DNA of 64,000 nucleotides from Blasia pusilla (Eukaryota): NCBI GenBank assembly GCA_050084515.1, contig CM114271.1:7316001-7380000 (forward strand), written 5' to 3'. Positions within the stretch are counted from its first letter, which is position 1. Each line of letters opens with the position of its first letter. Below the pieces are notes generated by a model. That model saw only the letters and a list, made by a program, of their open reading frames with translations. It made no database searches and was not told where the DNA came from. The translations under genes and the position numbers were made by a program. This document shows positions 17,618 through 63,777 of this stretch, piece by piece.

Positions 17618-17717
<100 letters not shown>

Positions 17718-18461
17718 TTCTAACCGAAGCAACTTCTTGCTCTAATTCTTGGACGTGGTTTTGATTTTGATCAAATGCAACGCTCAACTCTCTCAATTCA
17801 CGAATCATATCCCTCAAAGTTTCTTCCATGATCGCTCCTATTTTCCCCTGACCCTTTACTATCACTCTAATATAAGATCAAGATATACACTTGCCAATTT
17901 TGCACAATAGGGACTATAAAAGGCAGTGTCGACGCAATGACTTCATCATAATACTCTTGGCCAAACTTCCTCACCATAAACTTTCAATATACTATCTTAG
18001 GTTGACAAACCACATGGACTATACATTGAGTGTTAAAAAATAATTTTGGAGGCCTATTCAAATCCATTCCCCATATCTCCTCTAAAATATATATATAAAT
18101 AGTGCAATCCCACACACGATCATACGTAACAATAGGGAGGATCATCGGAAAGTGAGACTCCATCACTTACGTCATAAAAACTTTACCAAAGTGATATACG
18201 AGATATCTTGTGAACTAGTGTCTATCTACATATAAGAGTTTGATGGTGAACGGATTAAGAAATGGAAAATTAGGAGCCACTCTTGCTCCCCCTCCATCCA
18301 TTACCTGCAAAATAGCCCTTCCTCCTTACTTTACTTGCAACTCAATAGCCATTGCCAGCCTCTAACAACCTATCTACTCTCAACAGTGTATCATCACTTG
18401 GTCATCCTTCTAAGAGGGGTAATCCACTCTCGTTGGAAGAGCAACCTTGCTCTGATACCAT

Positions 18462-18815
18462 TGTAACTCTCCAGGTCACGGAACCACTCTAGAGTTGCTC
18501 AACGGTAGAATGCTCCTCGAGGCCTCTCCTCTTCCTTTATATACTTAGATATAGGTACAATGAAGATAAATTAGCTCTATCTATCCTTATGCTACGTGTC
18601 TTACTCTCATAGCATGAGAGAATCTCTTTTGGACTCTAATGTCCCAACCTCATCTTCCTCAACCTCATCCTTATCTTCATTTTCACTAACATATGGCCCC
18701 ACTCTCATCTTTATCTCATGTATCTTGTCTTTTCTCTTTTTGATTGATTCTTTCCCACTTATGCACTTCATGTCATAGATTCTAACTTAACTATGACTAA
18801 CAAAGGATGGTTACA
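18462..18815 (-). repeat. 5' LTR of element E
   Basis: 354-bp direct repeat with the PBS immediately adjacent. Confidence 0.96.
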
Positions 18816-21835: not shown

Positions 21836-22152
21836 TATCGTGCGCATACACATCGCTACACAACATACATCGATGTCACCAAACACACACATACAAACAC
21901 GCACGATCCCATGCTAACTCATAACATCCAAACAACGAGACAAGAAGTACCAAAATATCTCCAATTAAAATAAGATCTAATCTCTCTCACAACACCATAG
22001 TTCTCACATGTGTGCACTCTCACATGTCTCTCTCAATGTCAAACCAAACCCTCTCTCCTAATTAGAGGCTTGGGTTACACACACAAGGTAAGCAAGAACA
22101 TAGCTCCGCCGCCTCATGCCAAGAGGTTCAACAAAGAGAGAATGAGCTCTCA
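21836..22152 (-). mobile_element. 3'-terminal fragment (B repeat + part of A repeat) of a fourth DNMT-Gypsy family copy
   Basis: tatcgtgcgcatacacatcg...ccaaaatatctccaat followed by the A repeat; homologous to 42680-42888 and 53519-53600. Shows the uninterrupted site aaaccaaaccc where element B inserted in element C. Confidence 0.85.
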
Positions 22153-22789
22153 AGGAAGAGCGTCCAGGATTTTTCTTTTTAACTATTTTCATTATGTTCC
22201 AATTTTTTCAATCTAAAGCTCAACGTGTTTATCTTCTCAAATTTGAATTTTGGGGTCTTTTTTTTCTAATTAAGTTGGGGTTTTCCAAAATTCTTGGGAT
22301 TTTTGGACTTGCTTCTCTCTTGAATACGCTCATAGATTTTTAAACGCAAATTCACGCAAAGCGCTCTTCTTATAGTGTGATTTCGGGTTACCATCGGTTC
22401 AAGGGATTTCTCTTTCTTTTTTCCATCTTTTGCTATAGGATAGTCCCAACATTATGACCTTATTCCCTCATATCAATCATTTGTGCGTGATTCACTTTCT
22501 CTTCACATCCTCTTTCTAGATGTTTCTAATTTCTTTCGTAACTTTCTCTCGTAGTATCGGTTTTGGGCATGTTTGTTCTTATTTTGATCATCTTGACGAG
22601 TTCCTTCTTTTCATACCAAGTAGGTTTTTTTTTTTTTTTTTCCCTCCTTCTCCGTAGGCGCCTATTTTTCATATGGGTTTATTTTAAGTCGATTCCTCTT
22701 AAAAGTCTTCCTTGTTCTTTCTACTCTTTATCGACTACTTCGCCCCTCCATACATTTGCTATCTCCTTAAGGGAATTATAGATTAATAT

Positions 22790-29400: not shown

Positions 29401-31018
29401 GTGTTCATCGATAAAAACGAGTGATGGAAAACCCATCGGAAGTACAAAAGAGGGGGACTCAAAGAGTCAAAACCTGAAGGCCACAACACGACATTCCGAA
29501 GAAGGGGGCATTCCCCCCTAACGACGAAACTCACCAAGTGTTCATCCGGTGCTCGTCGCATTTAAGTGAAAAATCGTTTTTTTCTACTAATATATGCTAA
29601 AGGGGATTTAGTTCCCTGATGTTCTCCCGTGCAAATATGTCTTTCATGACCGACTCATTTAGGCGTGGGAAAAATTATTCGGGATTCATTATCCCGTACA
29701 TCGCACGGGCACCTCCCTTTTCTTCAAAGTTCTCGACCATACAGGTCCACCTATGCACAACTCAAAACCTGCGAGAGTACAAAACCCACAGATTCAGAGG
29801 GCAGTCGAGTTCTTCAACGAGAACGGAACCCAATTTGGTGGGATCCCCAATGTAGGGACGACCCTACATTTAGTGCATCTTCCCAAATGGCCTCGTCACT
29901 TGTGGGACTCGACATTGCGGGCTGCGGGCAGCATCGGCAGGAGTCTCAATCCTCGCACGATCAGCAACTCGATCCATGATAATATTAATCTATCCGTTCG
30001 GTCTCTAAATAATTAAAATGAAAAATAAATAAATGTGAATACATAAATAAGCGAAGAAACCTCGCGTTCAAGCAGCGCGCTCGCGAAAAGGAAGAAAGAT
30101 AGAGAACTACGGGTTGATTCCTTCCTCTTCTTGCCACGCGTTGACGGGGCAAGGAGGGTGGAAGAAGATTGACCCGACCCATCGCAGCCCTAGGGAAAAA
30201 GCGGAAGTGAGAGAGAAAGGGGTAGGAAGGAGGAGAGAGGGTTTCATTCAGCACGCACCGACACGCGGATGCTAAGAGGGAGCACACTATAGGAATTGTA
30301 GAGTCTAGAAGACGGGTGGATTCCGTGGGGCTAGTTGAGGAGGGGGGTTCTGGAAACGAGACGACGGTGGTGGCGACCCGAGGGACCGGAAGGAAGGACG
30401 GAGGATGGGGGAGGGGCGGACGGACTCGAGAGCGCTCAGGCCGCGGACAGCGAAAGGAAGCACGCGGGAAGAAGCGTTGTTTTGTAGAGTGATGATGTCG
30501 TGCGGTGGACGAACGAATGAATGATAGTGCTCTCGCCCTTGGTGTGTGCGGGGAATTCCGGGGAGCTGCAGCGGTAGTAGTAGTGGAAGAGCGGTACATG
30601 AGTGAAGCGTCTAGTGCTTTGAAGACGAGACCGAGAGGAGTTCACATTCCGGAGGGAGGGTATGAGGCTTCATTGATTGTTGTTGATGATTCGGAGGAGG
30701 AAGAGGAGGAGGAGGAGGAGGAGGAAGAAGAGGATGCAGCGAGCGCATAGTGCAGTGGAGGATTAGCAAGATGGGGCCGGATATGGGGCGGGGCGGTTGT
30801 TGTTTGATTACTGTCAGGTTGTGAGCGATGCTGATATCTTCTAGGACGAGAGGAGTGGGTATTGCTTTGCCGGGATTTGGTGCGGGTGCCAAGCACGGCG
30901 GAGGGGAGTGGATCAGTGACGGAAGGGAGAGGAGGAAGTTTGTGACAGCTGAGCGCAGGACGGGAGTTTGTCTTGGGCGAAGGGGAAGCGAACGGAAGCG
31001 AACTCTGCACATAAGGAG

Positions 31019-31022
<4 letters not shown>

Positions 31023-31082
<60 letters not shown>

Positions 31083-31096
31083 TAGAAAGAGAGAGC
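31023..31096. repeat. GA microsatellite in the kinase upstream/5' UTR region
   Basis: (GA)n tract seen directly. Confidence 0.9.
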
Positions 31097-31494
31097 TGAA
31101 GGGAATGGCCGTTTAGGGTTGGGAGACAGTATTGCCCTTCGAGGTTTCTTCAGTGCACGGTCTTTCTTTCTCGGTGGTGGGATTCGCTGTTGTGAGTGAC
31201 AGAATCTTCCGACTGGTCTTAGATGCATGTGCGGGAATCGAGGAAGGCAGTTTGGGAAGTGATCGAAGGTGCGCCGCTTTTTTTGGCGACGAGGAGATTA
31301 TTGTCTCTGCTGAGAATTGAAGACGGGGGAAGGGTTGAGACCCAATTCGATTCCCGACCTCGGGGTGAAGTAAAGGATGGAGTTTCAGCGGCATGGGTAT
31401 GCAGGCCGAGGCTCGACGGTGTCCTGAAGGCAGGCTTTGGTATCAAGGATGACAGTGGTGTGTTGGTAGGTGTACGGGAGAGTGGATATCAGTA

Positions 31495-41014: not shown

Positions 41015-41640
41015 TCATAAATTGTCTAACGGTTTCACGACATCATCTTCTACAAATGCTTTAAGATAATTTTTGTACATATTTTGGTTTTCCATATATG
41101 GTGCATTTTGATTCATAGGTCCACATGGGTCATGACTTATAAAATAAAATCGTGAATGAATACATTGATTAAAGGTTTTTACTAAAATTATTTGGTCATA
41201 TTGGGAAGTGGTATTTGATTTATCCTCACGATCTAAAATAGTAGGGACATGCACATGTGGTAGACCCTTCTTTTCTAATTTCACCACATGAATGCATCCT
41301 ACAATTGACCCTCATATTTTCTTTTTGACGATAAGTTGTAACAATTCCTTCTTCTTCTTCGTCTCAAAGACACATATAACCAAATCCGATCTATCAACAG
41401 GTGACTAACCAGGTAAAAATGATATAAACTTTTCCCACTTCGGATTGCATGTCATAGTCAATAAGTAATAAGGGTTTCCAAGTGCCTCACAATTGCCATT
41501 GCATCTTGATACAATTGATGCATATGATGTGGCTCTTCGATGAACGAAGAGGGTAACACAACACGTCTTCCAACCCTTGTGTTATCCACATCATGACGAT
41601 ACATGACATCCTTTACACCTTGATATAAATTATCCCTCAA
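41015..41640 (-). mobile_element. Helitron Rep (HUH) domain fragment, interrupted by element C
   Basis: QLRDNLYQG..VGRRVVLPSSF..MHQLYQDAMAIVR..MTCNPKW..EKKGLPHVH..HDPCGPMN, matching Helitron Rep motifs (LPSSF..YQDAMA, FTCNPKW, QKRGLPHAH, HGPCG). Confidence 0.88.
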
Positions 41641-44607
41641 CGTGTAAATGCGCATACACATCGTTACACAATATACATCATTTGTCACGAACACACACAC
41701 ACAAACACACACGATCCCATGCTAACTCATGGCATCCATACACAGAGGCGAGAAGTACCAAAATATCTCCAATAAAGTAAGATCAAATCTCTCTCTACAC
41801 CATCTCACACCATAGCTCTCAAAGGTGTGCAGTATCTCTCATGTAAAACCAATGTCATGACCATACGGATTATGTCGTAGAGTATGGTGTCTTTGGTAGA
41901 GGCCATTCCTTATGTAGGACCGTAGTGGCTTGGTAGAGATGCGGTTCCATACATAGGGTTGGGGTTACTCACTTGGGGTGACTTTCCCAGAGGGCCCGCT
42001 CTTAGGTTGGAGGATATAAGGTGGCTTGCCCTCAAAGAATAGTCAGTTCTTTGAGTTGAGCTGTGCGTTGGGAGTTAGCCTTGGTAGTGAGTAGAGCTCT
42101 TGGCTATGATGTTTCCAAGCTAAGCCGACCTAGATTCTCCCATCGTGGAGTGGGTTTGGCTCGATTGTATGTGATTGTAAACGTGTTTTATGACATGAGG
42201 TCTTTCACGGATTTCACTCAAAGAACTGGAGTAGATCGATGGTAGCTTCGATTGTAGATCAGTAGGATCTGGTTAGGGCTGATTGTGTACTCAGCCGTGG
42301 ATGTTCGTGGCTTGTGGCCTATGTTGGAGGTGTGAATCTGGTGCGCGGTTGGTTGGGAAAGAAGCGCCTTGCTGAGAGCTTTCCAATGGGCTTTAGATCG
42401 CCGGATTTCGTCAAGGGAGTTGGAAGTTATCAAGGATTGAAGATTCTGGTTCGTGTTCGACGGTTTTCTGATGTGGAGAGCTTGGAGCGCGGAAGCTGTG
42501 TTGAAGTTCATCCAGATCGGGTGAGAGGTTCCCATTGCATCTTGATACAATTGATGCATATGATGTGGCTCTTCGATGAACGAAGAGGGTAACACAACAC
42601 GTCTTCCAACCCTTGTGTTATCCACATCATGACGATACATGACATCCTTTACACCTTGATATAAATTATCCCTCAACTGTGTCGTGCGCATACACATCGT
42701 TACACAATATACATCGCTGTCACCGAACACACACACACAAACACACACGATCCCATGCTAACTCATGGCATCCATACACAGAGGCGAGAAGTACCAAAAT
42801 ATCTCCAATAAAGTAAGATCAAATCTCTCTCTACACCATCTCACACCATAGCTCTCAAAGGTGTGCAGTATCTCTCATGTAAAACCAATGTCATGACCAT
42901 ACGGATTATGTCGTAGAGTATGGTGTGCTGGTAGAGGCCATTCCTTATGTAGGACCGTAGTGGCTTGGTAGAGATGCGGTTCCATACATAGGGTTGGGGG
43001 TTACTCACTTGGGGGTGACTTTCCCAGTAGGGCCCGCTCTTAGGTTGGAGGATATAAGGTGGCTTGCCCTCAAAGAATAGTCAGTTCTTTGAGTTGAGCC
43101 TGTTGCGTTGGGAGTTAGCCTTGGTAGTGAGTAGAGCTCTTGGCTATGATGTTTCCCGCAAGCTTCGACCTAGATTCTCCCATCGTGGAGTGGGTTTGGC
43201 TCGATTGTATGTGATTGTAAACGTGTTTTATGACAGTAGGTCTTTCACGGATTTCACTCAAAGAACTGGAGTAGATCGATGGTAGCTTCGATTGTAGATC
43301 AGTAGGATCTGGTTAGGGCTGATTGTGTACTCAGCCGTGGATGTTCGTGGCTTGTGGCCTATGTTGGAGGTGTGAATCTGGTGCGCGGTTGGTTGGGAAA
43401 GAAGCGCCTTGCTGAGAGCTTTCCAATGGGCTTTAGATCGCCGGATTTCGTCAAGGGAGTTGGAAGTTATCAAGGATTGAAGATTCTGGTTCGTGTTCGA
43501 CGGTTTTCTGATGTGGAGAGCTTGGAGCGCGGAAGCTGTGTTGAAGTTCATCCAGATCGGGTGAGAGGTTCCCATTGCATCTTGATACAATTGATGCATA
43601 TGATGTGGCTCTTCGATGAACGAAGAGGGTAACACAACACGTCTTCCAACCCTTGTGTTATCCACATCATGACGATACATGACATCCTTTACACCTTGAT
43701 ATAAATTATCCTCAACGTCGTGCGATACACATCGTTACACAATATACATCATTTGTCACCGAACACACACACACAAACACACACGATCCCATGCTAACTC
43801 ATGGCATCCATACACAGAGGCGAGAAGTACCAAAATATCTCCAATAAAGTAAGATCAAATCTCTCTCTACACCATCTCACACCATAGCTCTCAAAGGTGT
43901 GCAGTATCTCTCATGTAAAACCAATGTCATGACCATACGGATTATGTCGTAGAGTATGGTGTGCTGGTAGAGGCCATTCCTTATGTAGGACCGTAGTGGC
44001 TTGGTAGAGATGCGGTTCCATACATAGGGTTGGGGGTTACTCACTTGGGGGTGACTTTCCCAGTAGGGCCCGCTCTTAGGTTGGAGGATATAAGGTGGCT
44101 TGCCCTCAAAGAATAGTCAGTTCTTTGAGTTGAGCCTGTTGCGTTGGGAGTTAGCCTTGGTAGTGAGTAGAGCTCTTGGCTATGATGTTTCCCGCAAGCT
44201 TCGACCTAGATTCTCCCATCGTGGAGTGGGTTTGGCTCGATTGTATGTGATTGTAAACGTGTTTTATGACAGTAGGTCTTTCACGGATTTCACTCAAAGA
44301 ACTGGAGTAGATCGATGGTAGCTTCGATTGTAGATCAGTAGGATCTGGTTAGGGCTGATTGTGTACTCAGCCGTGGATGTTCGTGGCTTGTGGCCTATGT
44401 TGGAGGTGTGAATCTGGTGCGCGGTTGGTTGGGAAAGAAGCGCCTTGCTGAGAGCTTTCCAATGGGCTTTAGATCGCCGGATTTCGTCAAGGGAGTTGGA
44501 AGTTATCAAGGATTGAAGATTCTGGTTCGTGTTCGACGGTTTTCTGATGTGGAGAGCTTGGAGCGCGGAAGCTGTGTTGAAGTTCATCCAGATCGGGTGA
44601 GAGGTTC
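41496..44607. repeat. Three tandem copies of a ~1036-1040 bp unit
   Basis: Units start at 41496, 42532 and 43572. Each contains a Helitron piece, the element C terminus and the first ~680 bp of element B; copies are near-identical apart from small indels. Confidence 0.95.
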
Positions 44608-47600
44608 CTGTTGCTACTCATATTGTGATCTCCTGTGAATCTATCTGCTCAAGTGTGTGGAGCGTTGCGGATTTCTGCGTGCATGAAACTTGGCGGAAGC
44701 GCTGTCGGATTTGCGATTCTGGAGGTGTATGGACAGCAAGTTTGTTTGATTTTTAGCTCGGAGTACAGAGCTCGGTTGTAGCTGATTTTTTGTGGAGAGA
44801 TAGCTATGGTGGTCAATTGATCGAAACAGATTTGATTTCGGTCACGTATTTGTGAAGTAATTTCTGATCGAAATTTCGCGGACTAGCTCAAGGTGTGGCT
44901 ATGGTGGACAGCGGATCGGAGGGGCTGGTTGGTTGGTGACTCGTTCATTTTTGGAGACGCCTATCCCGTTGGGGGCGCCCTGGTTGGACCTCTCTCCATA
45001 GCGAAGCATGGCGAGGCTTTGAGGCAACTCGTGGTAGCTCGGGGCGAGTGGGCGTGAGAGGCGGAGTAAGGAGCAAGCAAGCAAGCTTGCTTGCTTGGGC
45101 GTAAGGCAATTTTTGCAGGATTTGGGATTTGAGTTTTGCATAACTGGTCACCCATCTTTGGGCTATTTGCTGGAGGACGCTTAAGCGCCGAGTTCTTAAC
45201 TATGCCGGTGTCTGTTGTTGTAGCTCATTTGGTCTTTGTTAGGAGATGTGTTAGGCGCTTTATGCATCTCAGGTTTTTGGTTGATGTACCTCTAGCGCGC
45301 ATAGTACGGTGTAGCCTCTCCATGCGGTGATATTTTCAGGTCTTGCGCGATTCGACTAGCACGTCATCGACCCGGCGGAGTAGCTATTGCGTTAGAATTG
45401 TGTGGTGGGTTTTGTGGATTCAGAGGGCACCACGTTTGGTGGATTGTGTTACCTTGATTTCTATTTGCGATTGGAGGATTGTCGTTGGATTTCTGTGTTT
45501 GGATCCCCTCCATCGTGCTTCTTGCTTGCGCGCCCATTGTTAGGGTTGACGCTGATTTCGAGTAGTGTTACTCTGTGTGCTACCGGTAGTGAGGTGGAGG
45601 GATGACGAGTAGATTGTGGGAGACTTCTTGTGGTGATGACAAGTTAGGTTGCCTACACCCATAGCTAGTAGAGCTAGAATAGTATAGCGACATCGGCGTC
45701 ACTTGGTAATTTGGTGGTGGTGCGGCATCGGCGTTGGTCATCACGGAGTGTCAAGTGGTCGGTTGGGGACCGTGGTGCGGCGGTGGTGGTTTCACACGGA
45801 GTGGATTTAGGTATCGGCTACCTTTTCCACGCCGACGGTTGATGAAGAGGAGGGCGAGGTGTTCCAAACACCGAGTCTTCTACGTTGTTATCGAGTGTTG
45901 CATCTCCATTGATTTGGGACATGGACGGTGGATATGGGGCCATGAAGGGCCCCTGACGATACTCGGGTGCAAAGTGGGTACCATTGAGTTGGAGGACTTC
46001 ATGCAGGAGTTTGATACGTGGTGTGATATGCAGATGTTGCGTGAACGCCACGTTGTTTACACCCTTCTTGGCTTGGAAGGGTTGTTTCAAAGACTTGGAA
46101 GGACCACCCATGGATGATTACCATGAGTTTAGGAAGGACCATGTTGTTGAGATTGAGGCATGGAGACAATATTGGTCTCAGGCTATGTGTCTATCACCCA
46201 TGGTGGTATTGGTAGTAGTGCTCCTACTATGCCCGGCCCCGACGCCCGAGTGGTACGAGTCGAGCCGGAGTGGGGGTACCGGTGGAGGTACTAGTGGGGG
46301 TACTAGTGGAGGTACTAGTGCCCCACCATCGTTTAGCCCGATTTGCAGAGAGTTCTTCAAGAGGTTGAAGAAGAACTATCAAGGAGTGAAGACGGAGAAG
46401 TTGAGGAATCTTCAGGACTTTGAGCGAAAAGGCGGTGAGAGTCTTCGTGAGGCATACACGCGTATGCGACGCTTGATTTCAGTTATCCAGGGGGTGTGAC
46501 CGAGGATCAGGCGATCAGTTTTGGTATGGGATCTTGGACAAAGATTTGCGCCGTAGGGTACGTGATGCTACTCTTATGAGTGATGATTCACCCACATTGA
46601 CCCATGTGTTTGCTCTATCTCGAGAAGATTGAGCTTAACATGGTGAAGGAGAGAGTGGTGACATCCGCATTCAAAGAGGGATACAACTACTACTTTCGTG
46701 TTCACCGCCCACCTCACAATCTCGTAGTAGTGGTGGTGGTAGTAGTAGTGGGAGTCGTGGGGGTACACGCGACCTCAATCAAGTCCTAGAGGGACATTTG
46801 TGCAGAGACCATTGCCTTCATTTGCTGCCCCGGCAGCAGGGCGATCATGTTGGACATATGGAGGTGATCATGTTAGGAAGTTTTGTCCCCAAGAGGATGG
46901 GAGACGGACTGCGGAGGATAGGCCTCGGTCGGCCCCAACTCGGTGTGATCATTGCGGGAGACTAGGTCATCCTCAAGAGCGTTGCTTTGATCTTCATCCG
47001 AGTTGAGATCAGGCCGTGGCCGTGGTGGGAGTAGCTCCGAGAGGCCAAGGTGGTAAAGGTGGTAGGGGTGGTAGAGGTGGACCGGTGGTTGGAGAGCCTA
47101 CGGTGGCTACCCCTACCACTATGACAGAGTCGACTATGGTCGCTAGGGTTGAGCATTGGAGCGAAGTTGGCTACTATGGCGGTATCCAAAGATAGATCGG
47201 GTTCGGGAGCAGGGGCTTCCACCTCTTATGGAGGGGATGATCTCTCTTATATGGCGAGTGCAAAGACAAAGTTGAGGCATCAGCTGCGATTCAGAGGAGC
47301 CACTCGAGCGTCGAGCCACGTGGTGCTCTTGTGGAGTTGGACCCCTGAGAGGGGTGAGGGGGAGGCAAGGCTAGGCTTCCCCAGTCATTCTTGTTGTATG
47401 AGGTGCTTAGGACTCCATCCATGGTTCCTCGCAGCCTATTGAGCCGACAGTGGGGATCGAGGCATCTACATCGCGTGTAGTAGAGACACGGATGCAACAT
47501 CCAATGCAAAGATTGCGGATGGCAACCGGTGTTGGGATCCCCATTGTTTTCGCCACGGAGCGATGGCTTTAGGAGTTGACTTAGCTCCTGTATTTCCCGA

Positions 47601-48458
47601 TTAGCGACCACGTTGTGTGAACGTGGGGTGTATTCTTGCTACACGTGTTGAGGTGGATGAGGGTGTTGCGGTGGAGCGACCCTCTATGTCGGAGTAGCAT
47701 TGAGTACGGTGCTACTTGGCAAAGCGGCGGGCGAAGATGGATGCATTACCACCGGCCAGCCATTGATCGTGAGAGGCTTACACTGGTGTATGTATGTTGG
47801 ACAACTGGAGTGGGATCTTCCGATTGGTGAGTCCTACAGGACAGGTGTATAGACCAGATAGAGTCTTGTTAGACTCTGGTGCCCAACCTTTGATGTTGGG
47901 AAAGGCGGCATGTATTGGTTTGGGTATTCGGAGGTCAGAGCTTGAGCCTTGCCCATTCCAGATTCAAACATCACTTGGAGGAGCCAATGATAGGTCTCAA
48001 TTCATGACACGGGAGAAGTTTTCTGTACAGTTGAGACCAAATCATGCGACTGATAGCTCCCGGTTGGGAGTATCTGCGGTAGTCACATCAACTGAGTCGT
48101 ATGATGTACTAGTTGGAGGAGCAGTATTGTACCCGATGGGTTTTCAGATGGATTACTAGACCGAGACAGCGTCTTATAGACCAGGTTGGCGGTCCGGGAT
48201 GGACGTATGAGCCAAGTTCTTGTGAGATTTATTTCTGGGGCTCGACCAGGAGGGTCTTCCCCAACAGTGTTAGCATCTGTGGCTGGTTTTAGTGGAGTAG
48301 TCACTTGGCCAGGAGACTTTTTGGAGGGTAATGTTTCTGCTATGGATTCTCCTGCGCATGACGAGGAAGAGGAGGCCCCACGGCGGACTCCTACTTCTGG
48401 CCCAGTTGGGTTATCCCCTTTGGATACTACACCCATTGTATGGCAGTATTCGTCGGAC

Positions 48459-49392
48459 GGCATTTGTGTGTTAGATCTCTTTGGTGGGATTAGCACTGGT
48501 TTGGCTGTAGTGTTGCAGGCCGGTATTCCTGTGCGGAGATACGTGTATGTGGAGCGAGATGAGACGGCCCACAGAGTCTCATCCCGACATATTGGTCGAT
48601 TGATGCGGAGATATCTGAGTTGTTGCCGCCATCAGCTATTCGTGGGTACCAGCGTGCTTTACCATCACACATTGCATTGTTGGGGGCGCAGGACCTTGAG
48701 AGAATTGGTCCTGTGGATTTGGTGATTGCTGGATGGCCATGTCAGGGTCATACACGTGCTGGTGGGGGTGAGGGATTACATGACCCTAGGTCTCGATTGT
48801 TTTGGGAGATGTTACGGGTGTTACGACATCTTGAGTTCATCGAGCACGTGCTCTAGCTTACATTCGGAGAATGTTCCATTGTTGGGTGACACTCGGACCG
48901 GATGATGGCGAGTGTTCATGAGGTGCGCTCTTGGATTGGACCAGCGGTGTTGTTGGATGGAGCGCGAGTTGGCTCAGCGTGTACATAAATCCACGCTTGT
49001 GGTGGACAAACTTGTTGCCTAGGGAGGTTCTCGTCGAGCATATGATGCGATGGCGGTATCCTCGCTTCGATGGATAGTATCTTGAATCTTGGCGACTTTC
49101 CCAAGTGGTGAGGGTTATTGATCGGTCACCCATGGCGGTGGTGAACCGTGTGGGCCAGCCTAGGATGGCACTACCCACATTTGTGAGTTTTCCTCGTCAC
49201 ATGCCTACAGGAAGGTGGTCGGGGCTTGTATGGGATTCTCATGTGCGGCGAGTTGGTGGAGCCTAACGCTGATGAGAGAGCGTGCGATGGGATTTGCTCT
49301 TGGTGTGACAACGGTTGCTTCTATTTTCGAGGCTTCACGACGTCATGTGTTGGGTCAGGCCATGGACCTGAATTGTTTGACTTGGATTTTTA
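48459..49392 (+). pseudogene. DNMT3-like C5 cytosine methyltransferase domain of element B (frameshifted as assembled)
   Basis: GICVLDLFGGISTGL (I), YVYVERD (II), DLVIAGWPCQG (IV, catalytic Cys intact), GLHDPRSRLFWEMLRVL, ENVP (VI), WWTNL (VIII), ERAMGF..SRRHVLGQAMD (IX/X). Confidence 0.93.
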
Positions 49393-49973
49393 GTCTTGGT
49401 ATGGCGAGCAAAGCGTCGACTTTGGACTATGTCTGTGGGTCTTCCACCCCTTGTAATGAGCTCGATGGCTCTGGGGACGGTAGAGGCATCGGCTGAAGCG
49501 AGGAGAGTAGTATTTTGCATCCTTGGAGTAGATGGGATGTAATGGTGGGCATGTGGAGTTGGTTGCTCATCTTTGCTGGTGGATGAGTTATTTGCTCGAG
49601 ATGATGGTGTAGCTAAGGGTGTACCATCTTGTGAGGGGGTTATGAGCGACCAATGGCATCGCCCTCTCCCTCTAGTGTGCCAGTGGAGGAGACTTGGGAG
49701 CCATTACTTGGGCCCAAGCTTACGGGAGGTGAGAAACGACGCTTGACACACTTCCTACGTGCTTATAGGAGTTGTTTTGCCTTTAGCATGAAGGAGTTGG
49801 GTTCTCTGGTTGGACCTGGTATACGGATTGATTTGGCTAGTGATACGCCAATCTTCCGTCATCCCTACCGATATAGTGATATGGAGAGGGACTTGATTCA
49901 GAGTAGGACGTTGGACCTTTTGGAGGCTGGATTAGTGGAGTTGTCCCATGGAGAGTATGCATAAGCCACTGTC

Positions 49974-51107
49974 ATGCCTGCTAAAAAGGATATGCATGGC
50001 AACTACACGGATAGGCGGATGTGTGGAGATTACCGTCCTATCAATCGGCAAACCAAGGCCGATAGGTATGCCATGCCTACACCTGAGGAGATCTTTGATG
50101 TGGTGGGACAAGCAAAGATTTTCAGTACTTTGGATCTTCGGGCAGGATACCATCAATTGCTGATTCGGGAGAGTGACAAGGCCAAGACAACATTTTGGGG
50201 TGTCAACTCTCATGGCAAGGATTGTTTGTACCAGTGGAAATTCTTACCCTTTGGGTTGAAGAATGCACTGCCGAGTTTCAAGAGTGATGGATGGAGGATC
50301 CTAGCAGGGTTGGATTTTGTTCGGTGTTACATTGATGATATCTTGGTGTTCAGTAACACGGTGGAGGAGCATCAGATACATTTGCAGATGGTGTTTGAGC
50401 GGTTGAAAGCTCATGGTCTACGTTTGCATCCAGGAAAGTGTAAGTTCTTCCATGAGGATGTTGAGTACTTGGGTCATGTGATCTATCCAGGTGGTTTGGG
50501 AGTTCAGCAAGCAAAGGTGGAGGCTATTGCACTTATTCCGCGTCCGATAGATGTGAGTAGAGTTCGAGCATTCATGGGATTGGCGAACTACTATCGGAGG
50601 TATGTGAAGGGATTTAGTGCTATGGCAAAGCCTTTGAACCAATTGCTGAAATCAGATCAAAAGTGGCACTGGGGAGATGATCAGGAGAGAGCTTTTGTGG
50701 AGCTTAAGGCCCAGTTGGTGGCGGCGCCTATCTTGAGGAGACCTATCAGAGGGTGCCCATTTCAGTTACACACTGATTGGAGTAGGTTGGGACTTGGAGC
50801 GGTGTTGACACAACATGATGATGAGCACATGGAGTTTGTGGTGGCCTATGCAAGTCGTTCGAATAATGCAGCAGAGTCGCGCTATAGTTCATATGAGGGA
50901 GAGTGCTTGGCAATAGTGTGGGCTGTGGCACACTTTAGGTGTTACTTGTTTGGCACAAAATTTACCCTTGTTACTGATCACCAGCCGCTCAAGTGGTTGA
51001 TGGAGTCGGACAAGCTTACAGGGAAGCTTGCACGGTGGGCTCTTATCTTACAGGAGTATGACTTCCAGGTGGTACATAGACCTGGAGTTGCCAACCTTGA
51101 TCTTTGA
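49974..51107 (+). CDS. Reverse transcriptase + RNase H segment of element B pol
   Basis: CGDYRPIN, LDLRAGYHQL, LPFGLKNA, YIDDILVFS, TDWSRLGLGAVL, TDHQPLKWL. Confidence 0.95.
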   Translation: MPAKKDMHGNYTDRRMCGDYRPINRQTKADRYAMPTPEEIFDVVGQAKIFSTLDLRAGYHQLLIRESDKAKTTFWGVNSHGKDCLYQWKFLPFGLKNALPSFKSDGWRILAGLDFVRCYIDDILVFSNTVEEHQIHLQMVFERLKAHGLRLHPGKCKFFHEDVEYLGHVIYPGGLGVQQAKVEAIALIPRPIDVSRVRAFMGLANYYRRYVKGFSAMAKPLNQLLKSDQKWHWGDDQERAFVELKAQLVAAPILRRPIRGCPFQLHTDWSRLGLGAVLTQHDDEHMEFVVAYASRSNNAAESRYSSYEGECLAIVWAVAHFRCYLFGTKFTLVTDHQPLKWLMESDKLTGKLARWALILQEYDFQVVHRPGVANLDL

Positions 51108-52618
51108 TGGGTTGAGTAGGAACCCATGTACTAGCCAAGAGGATACAAGCGGGGCTAGATGGCATGGCGAGGTTGATGAGGAGATGGTGCCAGGTTGGCA
51201 TGCATCCGCCTTTTATGTTGGTTAGGTGGACTCTAGTATGGAGGACCACATGATATCTTACTCTAGTCGAGGGTAGATGGCCGGCCTTGAGATCCTAAGG
51301 TTGGAGATGGTGGTACGGATCACCGTGATATTCATGATGATGCGTTGGTGTTGGAGTTCCCTACGGATCAAGTAGGGTGCGGACATAGTGAGTGCCAAGG
51401 AGCGAGACCGTGTTCTTCAACGTGCTAAGAGGTATCGATTGGAGGGAACACATATTCTCCGCGTATGGGAGGATGGTAGAGTACAGTAGTGCCACATTTG
51501 ACTCGAGAGAGAGCGCATTGTGCGACATGCCCATGAGGAGTTGGGACATTTTGGGGTAAAGCGCACGTATAGCTTACTCCTTGGCGATTGGTGGCGTGGC
51601 ATGCATACTCAGGTGCAGCGATTGGTGTCACGTTGTATGGTTTGTGACCGGGTGAGGGCATCATTTAATGCCCCTACACCACAATTATACCCCTTGCCTA
51701 TTATAGGGTTGGGTTACCGTTGGAGTGTGGACTTTTTGGGACCGTTACCTTTTTGACCGACATCATCGATATGTGTTGGTGATGGTGGAGCACTTCTCCA
51801 AGTGGATTGAGTTGGTGGCATTACCGGACAAGGCAAGTGAGGAACGGCGTATGCGTTTCTGGATAGAGTGCTTAGTCATTTTGGTGCACCACCGGCTGAA
51901 GTCTTTGACCGACCACCGAGGTCTGAGTTTCAAGGTGAGTTTCAGGTCTTGTGTGACAAGGGGTTGATTGATCATCGGACCACGTCTCGAGATCATCCAG
52001 AGGCGGATGGTTTGGCTGAGCGTGTGGTTCAGACGGTGAAGAGGGCATTGCGCAAGTATGGCCTATAGAAGGGGCATCTTGGAGACTAGGATATTCAGTT
52101 GCCATGGTTAGCCATCGGGTATAGGTTGATCGCCAAGCATCCTTGGCTTCCTTCTCACCTTATTTTTGTTATCGGCCGAGATCCGGACTTGCTAGCAAAG
52201 CAATTCGTTGGGAGTCTAGTGAGGTGGTGAACCTTGATGACCCGAGAGATGTGGATGAGGGTGTGTTCTCGGGCGGAGCTCTTCGGAGAGTTATGCCAAC
52301 GGCCTTTGAGAATCTTGCCATTGCTCAACACGGGGATACGTTGCGGTATGCAACCATTGGGTGGAGGTTATCGACCATCGATTCAGAGGTTCCATGTGGG
52401 GACTATGTCTTTGGCAGCACATTGCCCGACAACGTTGGATGTGACGACAGGCCGCACTATTTTACGAGTGCGTGAGGTGTTAGCTTCTGGAGTTCTCATG
52501 TTGGAGGGTCGTGATGGAGTTGTTTGGAAGGACCATGTGCGTAATTGTGCGCCATATCATCTTCCAAATGTGGATGGTACTGTTGACCCAAGCTTAGCCA
52601 TGATACGTGCTAGCTAGC

Positions 52619-52765
52619 TTGAGGTGCATGTTGTGTGGATATGCTGGTAACGCAGCCTGTATGTTGGTGTGTGATCGGTGTTCTAGGGGTTGGCACATGA
52701 TGTGTTTGACTCCACGTTTGGATGTTGTTCCTACTGGAAGGTGGGTTTGTCCTCGATGTACTTAG
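52619..52765 (+). other. PHD finger at the pol C-terminus of element B
   Basis: LRCMLCGYAGNAACMLVCDRCSRGWHMMCLTPRLDVVPTGRWVCPRCT* (C4HC3). Put out of frame here by a 4-bp TAGC duplication; in frame with the integrase tail in element C. Confidence 0.93.
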
Positions 52766-54675
52766 GAGAGGTAGATGACTTGATCTTTGCATGATATGGA
52801 TTACAGATGTGCGACTTACGATGGGGCAACCTAGCACCCGGCCTTCTGATTTGGGCATCCAAGAAGGTGTATAGCATGTAGTAGATGTATAGGGCTACCA
52901 GGAGTTAGAGGACCTAACCGCTTGATTAGGGGGCGAGTTGTGGTACACTTGCGTTTGTGGATACTCTCGTCTATGTTATGTATGTATGTGCGTATGGTAT
53001 GTCAGCGATGTATGTTGTATGACGATGTGGATTCGCACGACAGCTGTCATGACCATACGGATTATGTCGTAGAGTATGGTGTGCTGGTAGAGGCCATTCC
53101 TTATGTAGGACCGTAGTGGCTTGGTAGAGATGCGGTTCCATATATAGGGTTGGGGGTTACTCACTTGGGGGTGACTTTCCCAGTAGGGCCCGCTCTTAGG
53201 TTGGAGGATATAAGGTGGCTTGCCCTCAAAGAACAGTCAGTTCTTTGAGTTGAGCCTGTTGCGTTGGGAGTTAGCCTTGGTAGTGAGTAGAGCTCTTGGC
53301 TATGGTGTTTCCCGCAAGCTTCGACCTAGATTCTCCCATCATGGAGTGGGTTTGGCTCGATTGTATGTGATTGTAAACGTGTTTTATGACAGTAGGTCTT
53401 TCACGGATTTCAGTTGTGGTACACTTGCGTTTGTGGATACTCTCGTCTATGTTATGTATGTATGTGCGGATGGTATGTCAGCGATGTATGTTGTATGAAG
53501 ATGTGGATTCGCACGACACCAAACCCACTCTCCTAATGAGAGGCTTGGGTTACATTCACAAGGCAAGGGACCATAGCTCCGTCGCTTCATGCCAAGAGGT
53601 TCAACAAAGAGAGAATGAGCTCTCTCCTCTCCCCTTGAGGTATACCCCTCCCCTCTCCCAAGCTCTCTCCATGGTAACCTATTCTCCCAAGTCATCTCCT
53701 TGGCTCTTGACCCGATGTAGGAGGTCAAGGGCCACTTACCAAAAATAAAAATTCGATCATATACTCAAAATGGTACTTACCTAAAATAGTAAGTTCCTCA
53801 ATATGGCTCCAAATGAGTTGAAACGAAGGGGAAACCTGCTCTCTCACATTTCCCAAGACCTTAGCAAGTCATCCTTGACCTACTGAGCCTGTCCTCCACT
53901 ACTCACGAAGGTGCTCTACTACATCTTACCGATCTATCCTAAAAGACGTGACAGTTGTCGTGCGCATACACATCGCTGTCACCGAACACACACAAAAACA
54001 CACACGATCCCATGCTCACTCATGGCATCCATACATAGAGGCGAGAAATACCAAAATATGTCCAATCGCCCCTCTAGTTGGTGGTTAGGTCACTGTAACT
54101 CCAAATAGCCATCTATCCCTACCTACCACGACATACACCTCTAGGACGCTAAGAGCAGAAAGATCAAGTGCTCATGTGGCCCCATCGTTAGTCGCCTTTC
54201 TGTCATCCATGTCACAAAAAAATTCGGAATCGAAACCTACCTAGTATCTCCTCTATGTACATCTGGGACACATCCATCGTCCCCGAGGAACCCTAGTGAG
54301 AGGTGGTGTCAGACATGCCATATGCCAACCTCTCAAACATCCATCACAGACTAGCATCCTGGCCGCACCACCAGGAGATCCACATAACATACAACGCAAA
54401 CTTGCAGGAACTACTGCTGAGCTCACATCTACTGTACCATCAATGGTAGGAAGGTGACATGGCGCATAATTATGCACATGGTCCTTCCATACCATACCAT
54501 CGCGTCCCTCCAGCAAGAGAACACCAGAGGGCAAAACGTCACGCACTCTCAGGATAGTGCGCCTTGCAGTCACATCCAACATCGTCAGTGCCGTCTGCTG
54601 CAAGTAGACATAATCTCCCTGATGAAACCTCCAGATAGTTGGTCGATAACCACCACCCCGAATAGTTGCGCGCAC

Positions 54676-59600: not shown

Positions 59601-61019
59601 AAATAATTTCGCAAGCAGAGAAACATTCTTAGTCTAGATAAGTATAAATGTCTCTAAGCAAAATTTGTTTGCAAACTGAAAGTTTCTCTATAGGTGAATA
59701 TACTAGAAATCAAAATAACACCATCACATGATTGCACCCTATTCAAATTTGGAGAAATACAGTATTTCAAGAACCTTTTCAAACATATCTTTCGGGCAAA
59801 GAAGTTTCAGAGAGAATATTTCAAATGAGCACAGCAAGTAAAATATTTCAATTGGCTATTTTCAACAAGCACTTACATGAGAAGATCACAATGAAGTAAC
59901 TATGATTTCATCACTTCATGGGATGGCTAATTACAAGAAGATTTTCCAAAATATGATCTATTACAATTTTTTCCCATGTGGAAGGCAATAATAGTTGTGG
60001 ATATTTCCAATCACAAAACTCAGACCTTGCACTCTTTAACCTCGAGTTTTCACGGAGAGAATTGTTGACACAAATTTGGCCTAAACATTTCCCTCTCGTA
60101 GATAATCAAAAGCACTGAATTATCGCAATATGCCAAACCTTTAGAAACCTTTCATCTTTTTACCATCTTGAGGGTACCAGCAAAGTTATTATTAGAGATC
60201 TCTCACCTAACAGCTAAAATACAAATTTGAACACCAAATGATAAAGAACAAAACTTTAAGTGTACCTCAGAGACACATAAGAAAATTTAAGATGAGAATA
60301 TTCAAAGTGGAAAGGTCACCTCAAGAAAAATTTGAGTAGTTTAAAATGAACAAAAATGAGAACAAACATATGCATTTTTATTATTCTTCAAATAATCCTT
60401 CCCTCATTGTCTTCCCACTCTCAAGTTGTGTATGGCACTTTTGCTCAATTTAATGATGGGGGCCTATTTACAGTCTTTTTGTCTTTAATGTAAGTCTCTG
60501 AAAATTCTGAGACTTACATTCAGAGAATACTTCCTTGATGTGCAATCACCTATCTAACTAACACCTTTCAATTTTGGGGCAGTATGATTACGGGTATGAA
60601 TTGCATGGCTACACAAAGTATAATAATTCTCTGAAGTGGTAAAATCTTTGTGGACGACAATATTATCATTTTATCCAACATGACGCCTGAGTCTCCTCCC
60701 ATCAACTTGAAGACATAGCGTACTGACTTAACATTTCTGGAATAGATCAACTTAGTCGTGGTGTGGAAATCATGTGGGCAAATCAACGTGACACAAAAAT
60801 TCAAGAAGGATCTTTTAATCAAAGACGAGATCCAAGGTTCTCACATATTGCCCAAATCCCTCTACACTACAAGGTTGGATATGCAAAGCCACACTCTTTC
60901 TTGAAGCCAAACAAAATGGCAAGCTCTGTAACCTCACTTCAGTGGAAACACTGGTGATGTGGTTAAACCAGGTTTCTCATGTCCAAAATACCACAAAAAT
61001 GTTGTGTGGGTGAGTGGAG

Positions 61020-62397
61020 AGAGACTATACTCATTTAGTAGTGCTTGTCGTAGCCTTGCGACCATAAACACCTCGCTCTGGTTGGACGGTGCAAGTGGAG
61101 AGAGTGTACTCATTAAGTAGAGCCTGTCGTAGCCTTGCGACCTTAGACCCTGCGCTTTGGTTGGCCTGTGCTTGAGACGGATGGGTGTAGAGAGAGGAAG
61201 AAGAGAAGACGGTACCATTTGAGAGGAGGGAGACACTCTCATATAGTGTGAGTGCTGACCAAACGTGCATGTCATAGCCTTGCAACCATAGACCCTACAC
61301 CATCATTGGACAGTGCTTGAGATGGGTGTAGAGAGGGGAAAAAGTGAAGAAAGTGCCAAATGAGAGGCGGGAGACACTCTCGTAGAGTGAGAGAGCTGAC
61401 TACACGATGTGTTGGACAATAAGCCCAGCGCCCTGGTTGGACTTTGAGAGAGAGAGATTCTACTCATTGAGTAGTACCTGTCGTAGCCTTGCGACCATAG
61501 ATCCTGTGCCCTGGTTGGACGGTGCTTGAGACTGGGATGGGTGTAGAGAGAGAAGTGAAGAAGGTATCATATGAGAGAAGGGAAACACTCTCATATAGTG
61601 TGCGCCCTGGGGGAGAGAGAGATTGTACTCTTTAGGCAGTGCCTGTCGTAGCCTTGCGACCATAGACCCCCACCATGGTTGGAAGGTCCGTGAATCTATA
61701 CTCATTAAGTAGTGCCTGTCGTAGCTTTGCACCCATAGACCCCGCGCCCTGGTTAGACGGTGCTTGAGACAGGGATGGGTGTAGAGAGAGGAAGAAGTGA
61801 GGGAGGTACCATATGAGAGGAGGGAGACACTCTCATATAGTGTGAGTGCTGACCAAACAACGTGTTTGTGCAGAGCTTCCAAGAGTCAACCAAGAAACTC
61901 TTCACCACACCATCTACTTTCCCTGATTGGGATCCCCAATAGACATTACTTACCAGTGAGGCAGCTTTGGGCAATGGATCAAGGCTACTGAGAGAGAGAC
62001 TATGCTCATTAAGTAGTGCCTGTCGTAGCCTTGTGACCAAAAACCCCACGCCCTGGTTGGATGGTGCTTGAGACCGGGATGGGTGTAGAGAGAGAAGCAA
62101 GTGAAGAAGGTACCATATGAGAGGAGGGAGACAGTCTCATATAGTATGAGTGCGAGAGAGAGACTGTACTCATTAAGTAGTGCCTGACGTAGCCTTGCGA
62201 CCATAAACCCCGCCCTCTGGTTGGACGGTGCTTGAGACTGGGATGGGCGTAGAGAGAGAAGCAAGTGAAGAAGGTACCATATGAGAGAGAGAGAGACAGT
62301 CTCATATAGTATGAGTGCGAGAGAGAGACTCTACTCATTAAGTAGTGCCTGTCGTAGCCTTGCGACCATAGACCCCGCGCCCTGGTTGGACGGTGTG
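61020..62397. repeat. Irregular tandem array of a ~165-bp unit, followed by (GA)n at ~62410-62467
   Basis: Core ctcattaagtagtgcctgtcgtagccttgcgaccatagacccc recurs at ~61030, 61109, 61463, 61628, 61701, 62005, 62169 and 62334. Confidence 0.9.
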
Positions 62398-62405
62398 TTT
62401 AGAGG

Positions 62406-62470
<65 letters not shown>

Positions 62471-62477
62471 TTTCAGG

Positions 62478-63777
62478 CTATTTCAACTTTGTGCAAAAGT
62501 CAGGTAGATCCACCACGTGTACCCGAGGAATTGCAGCAGCTGAGACCCTTTCTTTCTCAGTGTTATAACCCCATGAAGCTGAGTAGATATGCAATATGAC
62601 AGCATTTGAAGACACGATCACAAACGAGCGAAATGGAGATGGGTTAATTAGACTTCTCTGTGCCACAAACTACAAAGCTGCCTATTATCAAACAATCTTA
62701 GAACTTGGATTCTTTCTGATTACTAGTGATTACTCTAGCTAAAGTCTTCCTATCTCTAACGTAAGCATTCATCAATCAATGAGAATAGTTAAATGGAATT
62801 GCATGTATGGAGATAGGACGTACCTAGATACAGGTTCCAACTGTCCAATTCAGAATCTTTTATAACATTCTGGAGAGTGGCGAGCCGATCTTCTACAAAG
62901 CTGCAGCAAGGGATTAAATCAATATATATATTCTGCCCTAAAATATTCTGCTTGACTGATCTAGTTAATCCATAAAGTTCTCTGTCATAAACGGCAGTTC
63001 ATCAGAGACTTACTGTAGAGTCATGCCCTGATGCTCAGGACGGGCTTGTAGCTGCTTCAAAATCTCTACTTTCGGCCTGTTGCCATACAAACATGTACAC
63101 CCACTTCTTTATGAGAGCTGAGATCCTAAGATATCATTCACATCAAACAAAGCATTGAAACATTCCTACTGTAGTTGGAGTTACATTCCACCTGCTTCGT
63201 TTATGTGCTTAACAAGCATTATACATATTTCCAAATTCAAAGGATGATAAAAAGAGCAGCAGATTGTATCACTCTAATCAAATTGTTTCCACATCATTTT
63301 TCGTACCAATGCTTATTTCCTAATTGTCTTGTTTACTGATGCACCGTAGGACCAAATTGGATACCATTACATGAAAGTCGATCTGCACATCCAATTCTTT
63401 TAAATAAGTCACAGTTCTACATTTAGACAATTATAGAGAGAGATGAATAAGCCCACCCTGAGCCCAATCCATATATATGTTCAGGAGGAATCTCCACTCC
63501 AGCAATCTCTTTGAGCAGCAAAGCAGCAAATCGTGCCTGGAACAGGATATCAAGAGTGACGACAATTTCAATGAGAATAATTCAAAGCCCATTGAGGAAA
63601 AGTATGAGGCATCCATCCTCCTACTATGTCGGAACCCAAAGCAAGCATAAAAATTAAGGCAAAGGGAGCTCCTGACAAGTTTGGAGCACTACCCAGCTTT
63701 GGCCTACCTGCTTGGTTGTAACAATGTACAAGGATGAAGTTGCAAATTTAATTGCATCTCCTGTTCCTGGATAGAAC
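62478..63777 (-). CDS. 3' five exons of a HAD-like hydrolase gene (At2g45990-like); 5' exons probably beyond the window
   Basis: GT-AG exons 63777-63708, 63536-63457, 63076-63014, 62900-62824 and 62578-62478 splice in phase to FYPGTGDAIKFATSSLYIVTTKQ-ARFAALLLKEIAGVEIPPEHIYGLGSG-PKVEILKQLQARPEHQGMTLH-FVEDRLATLQNVIKDSELDSWNLYL-ASWGYNTEKERVSAAAIPRVHVVDLPDFCTKLK*. Confidence 0.92.

Follow-up and report, generated by a model that had tools for sequence, protein, structure and literature searches.

A 64,000-nucleotide stretch of the Blasia pusilla genome (assembly GCA_050084515.1, contig CM114271.1, positions 7,316,001 to 7,380,000 of the forward strand; hereafter the window, numbered from its first letter) contains a Ty3/gypsy-type retrotransposon, element 1, whose two integrated ends recur inside the element, joined end to end with two additional nucleotides between them. 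This internal junction (53036-53051) is probably the attachment site of the element, with the recognition ends of its integrase located inside the reverse-transcribed long terminal repeat (LTR) and not at the LTR tips. The genomic copy is supported as a circular permutation of a complementary DNA (cDNA) with LTRs of the form B-NN-A, in which A and B are the two repeats of the element and NN is the spacer, because a polypurine tract precedes the first B repeat, a primer site follows the first A repeat, and stranded RNA covers B1-GC-A2 and not A2-B2.

Anatomy of the junction and the repeats

Read directly in the window, the junction consists of CACGACA (53036-53042), GC (53043-53044) and TGTCATG (53045-53051). 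Repeat finding and BLAST within the window gave two pairs of repeats, A1 (43925-44292) and A2 (53045-53412) with 99% identity, and B1 (52937-53042) and B2 (53413-53518) with 98% identity. These limits define the junction as the last base of B, two nucleotides and the first base of A, confirming what a previous reading of the window from its letters alone (the sequence-only reading) had described. Element 1 therefore has the order A1-internal-B1-GC-A2-B2, ending at 53518, and its features, together with two related minus-strand copies (elements C and D), are as follows.

43921-43924, plus strand: left target-site duplication CCAA, from the flank reading and an empty paralogous site
43925-44292, plus strand: repeat A1, left end of the integrated element, starting TGTCATG, with a TATA-like box at 44089-44094 and CAGTTCTTTGAG at 44118-44129
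44293-44304, plus strand: predicted primer-binding site CTCAAAGAACTG, perfect complement of 44118-44129 inside A
52928-52936, plus strand: polypurine tract AGGGGGCGA, directly 5′ of B1
52937-53042, plus strand: repeat B1, with CACGACA at its end
53036-53051, plus strand: junction and proposed internal attachment site, at which integrase would cut after each CA, from the sequence, shuffles and RNA reads across it
53045-53412, plus strand: repeat A2
53412-53413, plus strand: A2-B2 joint, ..GGATTTCA then GTTGTGG.., the predicted unique 5′ (U5) tip abutting the unique 3′ (U3) tip
53413-53518, plus strand: repeat B2, right end of the integrated element, with CACGACA at its end
53519-53522, plus strand: right target-site duplication CCAA, from the flank reading, the empty site and loose read ends
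53519-54657, minus strand: element C, a 5′-truncated relative, with integrase C-terminus/PHD, polypurine tract, B1′, junction and A2′
1-7574, minus strand: element D, of the same family as C, with A1′ (7574-7090), primer site, and gag to RNase H

The outer borders of element 1 read ...AAAACCAA then TGTCATG on the left and CACGACA then CCAAACCC on the right. The spacer GC is present at neither of them (CCAA/TGTCATG at 43921-43931 and CACGACA/CCAA at 53512-53522), in agreement with the sequence-only reading, which had also pointed out the equivalent junction of element C. In the latter, B1′ (54065-53956) and A2′ (from 53953) meet in CACGACA-AC-TGTCACG on the minus strand (53962-53947), and the 7-bp end motifs are thus kept between the two otherwise dissimilar families of elements 1 and C. 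A search for the 16-mer pattern with a free spacer, CACGACANNTGTCAYG with at most one mismatch, returned two matches in the window, compared with a mean of 0.04 in shuffled sequence, and none of 100 shuffles reached two.

The perfect palindrome noted in the earlier reading holds for the window copy, where the 10-bp GACAGCTGTC lies inside 53036-53051, but not across copies. Position 53044 is T, not C, in 46 of 107 and 65 of 160 majority-direction RNA reads from two runs, 30 X1 contigs likewise have T, and related loci carry GC, GT, AT, TA, AC or TG as spacer. Among copies of the window's own family, position 53044 is either C or T and the junction shows no listed indel. The conserved part is therefore the two 7-bp inverted ends and their 2-nt spacing, while the palindrome itself varies.

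Target duplications and use of the same termini

Element 1 lies within the A2′ repeat of element C, and the tetranucleotide CCAA ends its left flank and begins its right flank. An uninterrupted paralogous copy at 22030-22050 reads ...GTCAAACCAAACCC with one CCAA (22044-22047), and in four runs the reads or contigs of other copies that match from 53519 onward show ...CATGTCAA before CCAAACCC. Because CCAA is found on both flanks and only once at the empty site and in the loose read ends, the insertion of element 1 made a 4-bp target duplication. Ten contigs of run X3 leave the end of B (53042) into mutually unlike sequences, and in each RNA run nine reads enter A exactly at 53045 from unlike, low-agreement sequence, indicating that the same termini were used at many sites. 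Perfect 4-bp duplications were observed in four of seven complete elements, namely CCAA (window), TTTA (L020), TACA (L018) and TTTT (L027), and in L025 three of the four positions match. Integrated copies terminate exactly at TGTCAYG and CACGACA, with the 4-bp duplications flanking them.

Priming sites of reverse transcription

The polypurine tract AGGGGGCGA adjoins B1 of element 1, AGAGGGGCGA (54075-54066) adjoins B1′ of element C, and GACCTAACC is found 5′ of both. G-runs also stand directly before B1 in 10 of the 13 related loci displayed, as well as in L027, L023, L019, L026, L003, L018 and L021. Directly after A1 lies CTCAAAGAACTG, a 12-nt perfect complement of CAGTTCTTTGAG (44118-44129), a match equalled at none of 300 control positions of the same element, and CAGTTCTTTGAG is located 29 nt downstream of a TATAAG box in A. 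Corresponding pairs occur in other copies. In element D, A1′ begins TGTCACG beside an unrelated flank and is followed by the primer site CAAAGGGAGAATGAG (7089-7075), which pairs by eye with CTCATTCTCTCTTTG, about 34 nt after GTATAC, in 14 Watson-Crick pairs and one G-U of 15 positions. L003 carries TTCGAAGAAC after A1 and GTTCTTCGAA in A2 (10 nt, by eye), and L020 carries TCTAGAAAAA and TTTTTCTAGA, 33 nt after a TATA-like box (10 nt, equalled at one of 300 controls). The complementarity next to A1 thus covaries between families, with differing sequences at the same places. From its sequence, this pair after A1 and inside A is predicted to be a signature of self-priming as in Tf1/sushi elements. 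If the plus strand is primed before B and the minus strand after A, standard reverse transcription yields LTRs of the B-NN-A form.

Transcripts across the junction

Reads of X22 and X23, both stranded RNA runs labelled as the same species, were mapped to 52700-53600 at 90% similarity, and depths are given for the majority read direction, which is consistent with sense-strand RNA of element 1. Coverage is unbroken over the internal region, B1, the junction and A2, and falls over the last ~120 nt of A, where the poly(A) site is predicted to lie. Depth is 129 (X22) and 185 (X23) at the junction (bin 53041-53071), 37 and 24 at the end of A2 (53382-53412), and 0.84, 0 and 0 (X22) or 1.7, 1 and 1 (X23) in three bins of B2, of which the first is 53413-53443. 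Twenty-six X22 reads pass from the end of A into CTCAAAGAACTAGAG..., the sequence context in which A1 runs into the primer site. In DNA, 53413-53474 is spanned by contigs of X1 and X3. Transcripts accordingly extend from inside A1 across the coding region, polypurine tract, B1, spacer and A2, stopping inside A or at its end. The junction is transcribed as part of U3, and the A2-B2 joint is present in DNA and essentially missing from RNA, which argues that the joint is remade at the DNA level in each cycle.

Three further features of the RNA were noted in the same region. Ten X22 reads and seven X23 reads skip 95 nt over the polypurine tract and the start of B1 (52889-52985), which probably reflects a deleted subfamily copy rather than splicing, and a further subfamily, marked by insertions and substitutions near 52900-52928, is dominant in RNA. 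Strong opposite-direction RNA (depth 75-146) covers A′ sequence of the element C family at 53506-53600, so that this family is also transcribed in the sampled material.

Repeat classes, spacers and joints among relatives

A scan of metagenome contigs with a reverse transcriptase (RT) alignment provided 80 related loci, which were classed by self-comparison and with libraries of A and B. L005, L013, L016 and L019 had no clean classification and were left out of the class counts; L029 duplicates L028, and L014 duplicates L011. The 3′ side reads B-NN-A-B and then flank in 12 distinct loci and in window elements 1 and C (14 in total), and B and then flank in eight distinct loci. L019 reads B-GT-A and then unrelated sequence, and the contigs of L021 and L023 end after A2. 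Two of the loci with B and then flank, L018 and L027, also have A1 and the target duplications TACA and TTTT, demonstrating that A-internal-B copies exist. On the 5′ side, 15 loci and window elements 1 and D read flank-A-internal, and the mirror permutation A-B-NN-A-internal was found at none of these 17 informative 5′ sides.

3′ side B-NN-A-B, then flank: L003, L008, L009, L017, L020, L022, L025, L026, L028, L031, L032, L037
3′ side B, then flank: L002, L010, L011, L018, L027, L030, L053, L056
5′ side flank-A-internal: L003, L012, L016, L018, L020, L021, L023, L025, L027, L031, L037, L052, L054, L074, L077
Spacer GC: window element 1, L021, L026, L008, L009, L032
Spacer GT: L019, L020, L023
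Spacer AT: L022, L025, L037
Spacer AC: window element C, L003, L031
Spacer TA: L017
Spacer TG: L028

A wide variation in spacer length, which the sequence-only reading had named as evidence that would count against it, was not seen: the spacer is 2 nt in all 17 B-A junctions read by eye (two in the window and 15 in distinct loci), and in each of them two bases separate ...A(C/T)A from a T(G/A/T)TCAT-like start. A strict-pattern scan of 923 kb at spacings of 0-12 gave 14 matches at spacing 2 and no true junction at any other spacing, five matches at spacing 5 being a subterminal repeat inside B and the rest unrelated sites. At the A-B joint, with the end of A set by A1 and the primer site and the start of B by the polypurine tract, the two repeats abut directly in 11 of 14 copies, and the variants in the other three (+1 nt in L009, -3 nt in L031 and +18 nt in L028/29) are indels of the kind that would fit a joint remade at the DNA level. 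In the moss-like loci L008, L009, L017, L020, L022, L032 and L037, B carries a second copy of its terminal motif, 15 nt upstream of the first and within its last ~30 nt (GTCACGACA-CTACAC-GTCACGACA), which may represent a second integrase-binding site; the B repeat of the window has no such upstream duplicate.

A quick IQ-TREE search with 66 RT rows and midpoint rooting gave a branch with an SH-like approximate likelihood ratio test (SH-aLRT) value of 99 that separates 35 from 31 rows. All 13 split-repeat rows, six A-internal-B rows and two B-NN-A rows fall on the 35-row side, and all nine rows with a plain LTR pair on the 31-row side. The A-internal-B rows are scattered among the split-repeat rows and are therefore products of the same families. 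Among eight plain-LTR loci displayed, five read TGTA... at both LTR starts. Four of these five have a purine-rich tract ahead of the 3′ LTR, as do two further loci whose boundary was printed a few bases early, and a TGGTATCAGA-type primer site, of the tRNA-Met type, is present in seven of the eight. A tblastn search over the 80 loci detected DNMT in 31 and PHD in 26, and neither domain in any of the 31 rows grouped with the plain LTR pairs.

Coding content and family assignment

The coding features of element 1 are the following.

45957-46499, plus strand: gag-like open reading frame (ORF) piece, Pfam Retrotrans_gag E 0.0016, 19.1 bits, below the cut-off of 24.1
48180-48856, plus strand: C5 cytosine DNA methyltransferase domain in two overlapping frames (frameshifted), Pfam DNA_methylase
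49965-51107, plus strand: reverse transcriptase and RNase H, Pfam RVT_1 88.2 bits and RT_RNaseH 127.1 bits, with two RNase H models
51502-52065, plus strand: integrase, with an HHCC zinc finger and frameshifted DDE core pieces, Pfam Integrase_H2C2 and rve
52604-52762, plus strand: C-terminal PHD finger, Pfam PHD 39.2 bits, cut-off 24

The methylase match scores 31.6 bits (cut-off 22) at 48563-48856, with FGG and PCQ motifs seen by eye, and Integrase_H2C2 scores 49.5 bits (cut-off 25.5) at 51502-51753. The rve pieces (51707-52065) reach 17.5 bits on a fragment, under the cut-off, and intact relatives carry PF00665. A protease is indicated only by a DSG motif seen by eye and a weak match (E 0.22). 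With gag upstream, the Pol order of protease, RT, RNase H and integrase is that of Ty3/gypsy elements (Metaviridae), as are the HHCC/DDE integrase and the short target duplication. Two identical end LTRs, a further feature of that group, are not found, since the left end consists of A only and the right end of B-NN-A-B, and the same holds for the 12 distinct related loci. The split direct repeats in the order A1...B1A2B2 instead match DIRS-order elements.

The RT/RNase H ORF shares 82-83% identity with proteins of the liverworts Calypogeia fissa and Marchantia polymorpha, its closest named relatives, and the M. polymorpha relative carries PF00145; identity with Klebsormidium nitens proteins is 47-54%. 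Many RT relatives combine rve, DNA_methylase and PHD. Like KnitGypsy-Dnmt3 of K. nitens, element 1 has a methylase in a Gypsy Pol and a DIRS-like repeat order, the methylase here being assigned at the level of C5 only. Element 1 is a relative of KnitGypsy-Dnmt3 in a streptophyte clade of DNMT3/PHD-bearing Ty3/gypsy elements.

A proposed route of integration

We propose that minus-strand synthesis is primed just after A, probably by the RNA's own 5′ end in a Tf1-like manner, and plus-strand synthesis at the polypurine tract just before B, so that the linear cDNA would bear B-NN-A LTRs. The DDE integrase would cut 3′ of CA on both strands of ...ACA-NN-TGT..., staggered with 2-nt 5′ overhangs, to provide two recessed CA-3′OH ends resembling two 3′-processed retroviral ends in one complex. 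These new ends would be inserted with a 4-bp stagger and the NN overhangs lost in repair, which would account for the missing NN at the integrated ends. Joining of the original cDNA tips (the A end and the B start) by the host would create the A2-B2 joint and the order A-internal-B-NN-A-B. The tips might be joined before the cut, in a 2-LTR circle, or after it, by cutting of the left LTR of linear cDNA, insertion and chromosome repair; both give the same product, and the data fit either. Cutting of both LTR junctions, or of the junction in a one-LTR circle, would produce A-internal-B copies, which could equally come from later recombination between B1 and B2. End joining of the tips seems to be required, as paper derivations by reverse transcription alone fail: alternative primers, nicks at the junction and rolling synthesis gave either A-internal-B or concatemers without an A-B joint.

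Of the model in the sequence-only reading, in which integrase opens a circle at the junction and the genomic copy is a permutation of a molecule with B+A LTRs, the permutation is largely borne out by the priming sites and stranded RNA. The action of an integrase at the junction gains support from the HHCC/DDE integrase, the 4-bp duplication and the loss of the spacer, while the circle itself does not, no circular DNA having been observed. Random opening of a symmetric circle does not fit the 17 informative 5′ sides, since it predicts A-B-NN-A-internal-B as often as the arrangement found; copies of the form A-internal-B, on the other hand, are common.

Several observations weigh against the proposed route. 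The cleavage step is one that we infer, and no circular or linear extrachromosomal DNA was observed. Identical junctions in the two LTRs should serve equally, yet there are no mirror copies against 14 canonical 3′ sides, and a bias toward the junction on the primer-site side is therefore needed; the left LTR, if it becomes double-stranded first, may commit integrase there. The window copy is defective, with frameshifts in methylase and integrase. Several old copies have a complement of only 7-8 nt or no perfect complement at the priming site, L037 and L025 being without one and L027 having 7 nt, no better than controls, and two of the seven complete elements (L037 and L031, old copies with 81-86% repeat identity) lack a target duplication. 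The sole pile of RNA read starts, at 53206 in one run, lies 32 nt upstream of the start predicted near 53238 (44118 in A1).

The alternative that survives best takes the junction as a template bridge, as has been proposed for DIRS, PAT and Ngaro elements, with template switching by RT completing both ends to give a linear or circular A-internal-B-NN-A-B cDNA whose ordinary tips are used by integrase. It would explain why the arrangement is deterministic, with no mirror permutation at the 17 5′ sides, and why A and B abut directly at most joints. We nevertheless consider it unlikely, because A1 and B1 adjoin priming sites in the manner of ordinary LTR elements, which leads to B-NN-A LTRs, neither the sequence after B nor that before A yielded a primer site, and A2-B2 is not in the RNA. 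Nor do the end of A and the start of B share homology that could guide a switch, and the joint variants of +1, -3 and +18 nt do not suit such a mechanism.

It is very improbable that element 1 is a conventional LTR element, with an LTR of A+B bounded by TG...CA, that was rearranged or arose by nested or tandem insertion or as an assembly artefact. Taken alone, A2-B2 does resemble a normal LTR, 475 bp long and bounded by 7-bp inverted ends, and nested copies abound in the region, which also contains a 1036-bp tandem triplication. Against this, the same order is found in two families of the window and in 12 distinct metagenome loci, in a clade with 46-86% RT identity, and RNA reads and contigs of independent runs span the junction. 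The polypurine tract and primer site lie at B1 and A1 and not at the borders of A+B; with the recurrence of the order, these positions also led to rejection of an A+B LTR with a rearranged 5′ LTR. Least probable of all is a DIRS-order element whose tyrosine recombinase inserts a closed circle at the B-A junction, for although the repeat order A1-internal-B1-A2-B2 is that of PAT/Ngaro-type elements and SymbioDIRS-Dnmt3 (PMC5890265), no match to a tyrosine recombinase (Phage_integrase) was found in 25 plus-strand ORF pieces, including ten from the 1.6 kb upstream of gag, and an HHCC/DDE integrase, 4-bp target duplications and an RT that groups with rve-carrying Ty3/gypsy relatives are all present.

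Other copies and repeats in the window

The A2′ repeat of element C is split at 53519 by element 1, with the remainder of A2′ and B2′ at 43924-43718. In element D, the stretch from gag to RNase H is colinear with element 1 and extends past the window edge. A fragment of the C/D family at 21838-22155, which served as the empty site, comprises the last ~190 nt of A′, ending at ~22155, and B′, followed by flank, and can be read either as a solo A-B unit or as a truncated 3′ end.

A unit of 1036-1040 bp is present in three tandem copies at 41493-44600, across the left insertion border of element 1. It takes in ~150 bp of flanking sequence, element C's B2′ and A2′ tail, the complete A1, and ~310 bp from the start of the internal region. 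Identity between copies 2 and 3 is 99-100%, and copy 1 has diverged further. This triplication is a duplication later than the insertion of element 1. Two direct repeats of ~355 bp (12676-13030 and 18462-18815), 97% alike and 5.8 kb apart, look like an ordinary unrelated LTR retrotransposon. Positions 61017-62500 hold an array of ~165-bp units (76- to 154-nt repeat families, 60-91% alike) with a long GA microsatellite at its end, and more GA and TC tracts are found at 31000-31100 and 17620-17720.

Discussion

The nearest described system is KnitGypsy-Dnmt3 of Klebsormidium nitens, for which the legend to Fig. 4c of de Mendoza et al. (2018; PMC5890265) gives Gypsy domains and DIRS-like repeats. 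Both elements have a Gypsy-type Pol with a C5 methylase, Dnmt3-like in KnitGypsy-Dnmt3, and K. nitens proteins are among the RT relatives of element 1, but the host lineages differ, the closest named relatives of element 1 being the liverwort proteins. Section 9 of that paper and the Fig. 4c legend do not describe a junction sequence or spacer, a target duplication, priming sites or a mechanism. A literature search that excluded most subscription journals and supplements returned the 2018 paper alone for KnitGypsy, and found no account of the mechanism, the junction anatomy, the 2-nt rule, target duplications or priming sites, nor of the RNA extent, the A-internal-B class or a liverwort- or moss-like occurrence of the structure. 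The words Marchantia, methyltransferase and PHD do not occur in the text of a survey of plant LTR elements (PMC6317226). The repeat order and domain set were thus already known for K. nitens from one 2018 legend, and what is new is the anatomy and a hypothetical mechanism that can be tested.

The enzyme encoded by elements of the PAT, Ngaro and DIRS order is a tyrosine recombinase, and these elements are described as lacking target duplications. PAT, Ngaro and SymbioDIRS-Dnmt3 share with element 1 the order A1-internal-B1-A2-B2, with an internal copy of the joined ends, whereas a DDE integrase, TG...CA ends and target duplications of 4 bp set element 1 apart. Palindromic LTR-LTR junctions are reported to be cleaved by the integrases of prototype foamy virus (PFV; PMC1180852) and human immunodeficiency virus type 1 (HIV-1; PMC1905944), and as described there, two head-to-head integrase ends are cut internally to give 3′-processed ends, as proposed here. 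The retroviral junction is formed from cDNA tips and used only as a side route, whereas that of element 1 lies inside each LTR, is transcribed, has a 2-nt spacing, and leaves tips that are not integrase ends. In self-priming LTR elements of the Tf1/sushi type, a stretch at the RNA 5′ end is described as complementary to the sequence just after U5 (PMC6317226). Element 1 likewise has no tRNA-type primer site, and a stretch near its predicted RNA 5′ end could pair with the sequence after U5; it differs in that its RNA start is a predicted one and in that it is not a chromovirus of the Tf1/Tcn1 group.

A stronger proposal is that the clade moved its integrase sites from the tips to the LTR interior, and that joining of the tips by the host and cutting of a transcribed junction are obligatory. 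This we hold tentatively, at a little less than an even chance. If true, the 2-LTR junction form, a dead end or side route in retroviruses, would be an obligatory intermediate in this clade, and DDE-integrase elements would have converged on the DIRS repeat architecture.

The textbook view of retroviruses is that the tips of linear cDNA are the integrase substrate and LTR-LTR junctions are by-products. The priming sites, RNA extent, termini and target duplications described here indicate that the opposite arrangement is normal in a widespread methylase-bearing lineage of plants and algae. The split arrangement explains why LTR-based annotation tools would miss or mis-cut such elements, and the lineage offers a natural system in which internal cleavage of a palindrome by integrase, and the part played by host end joining in retrotransposition, can be tested.

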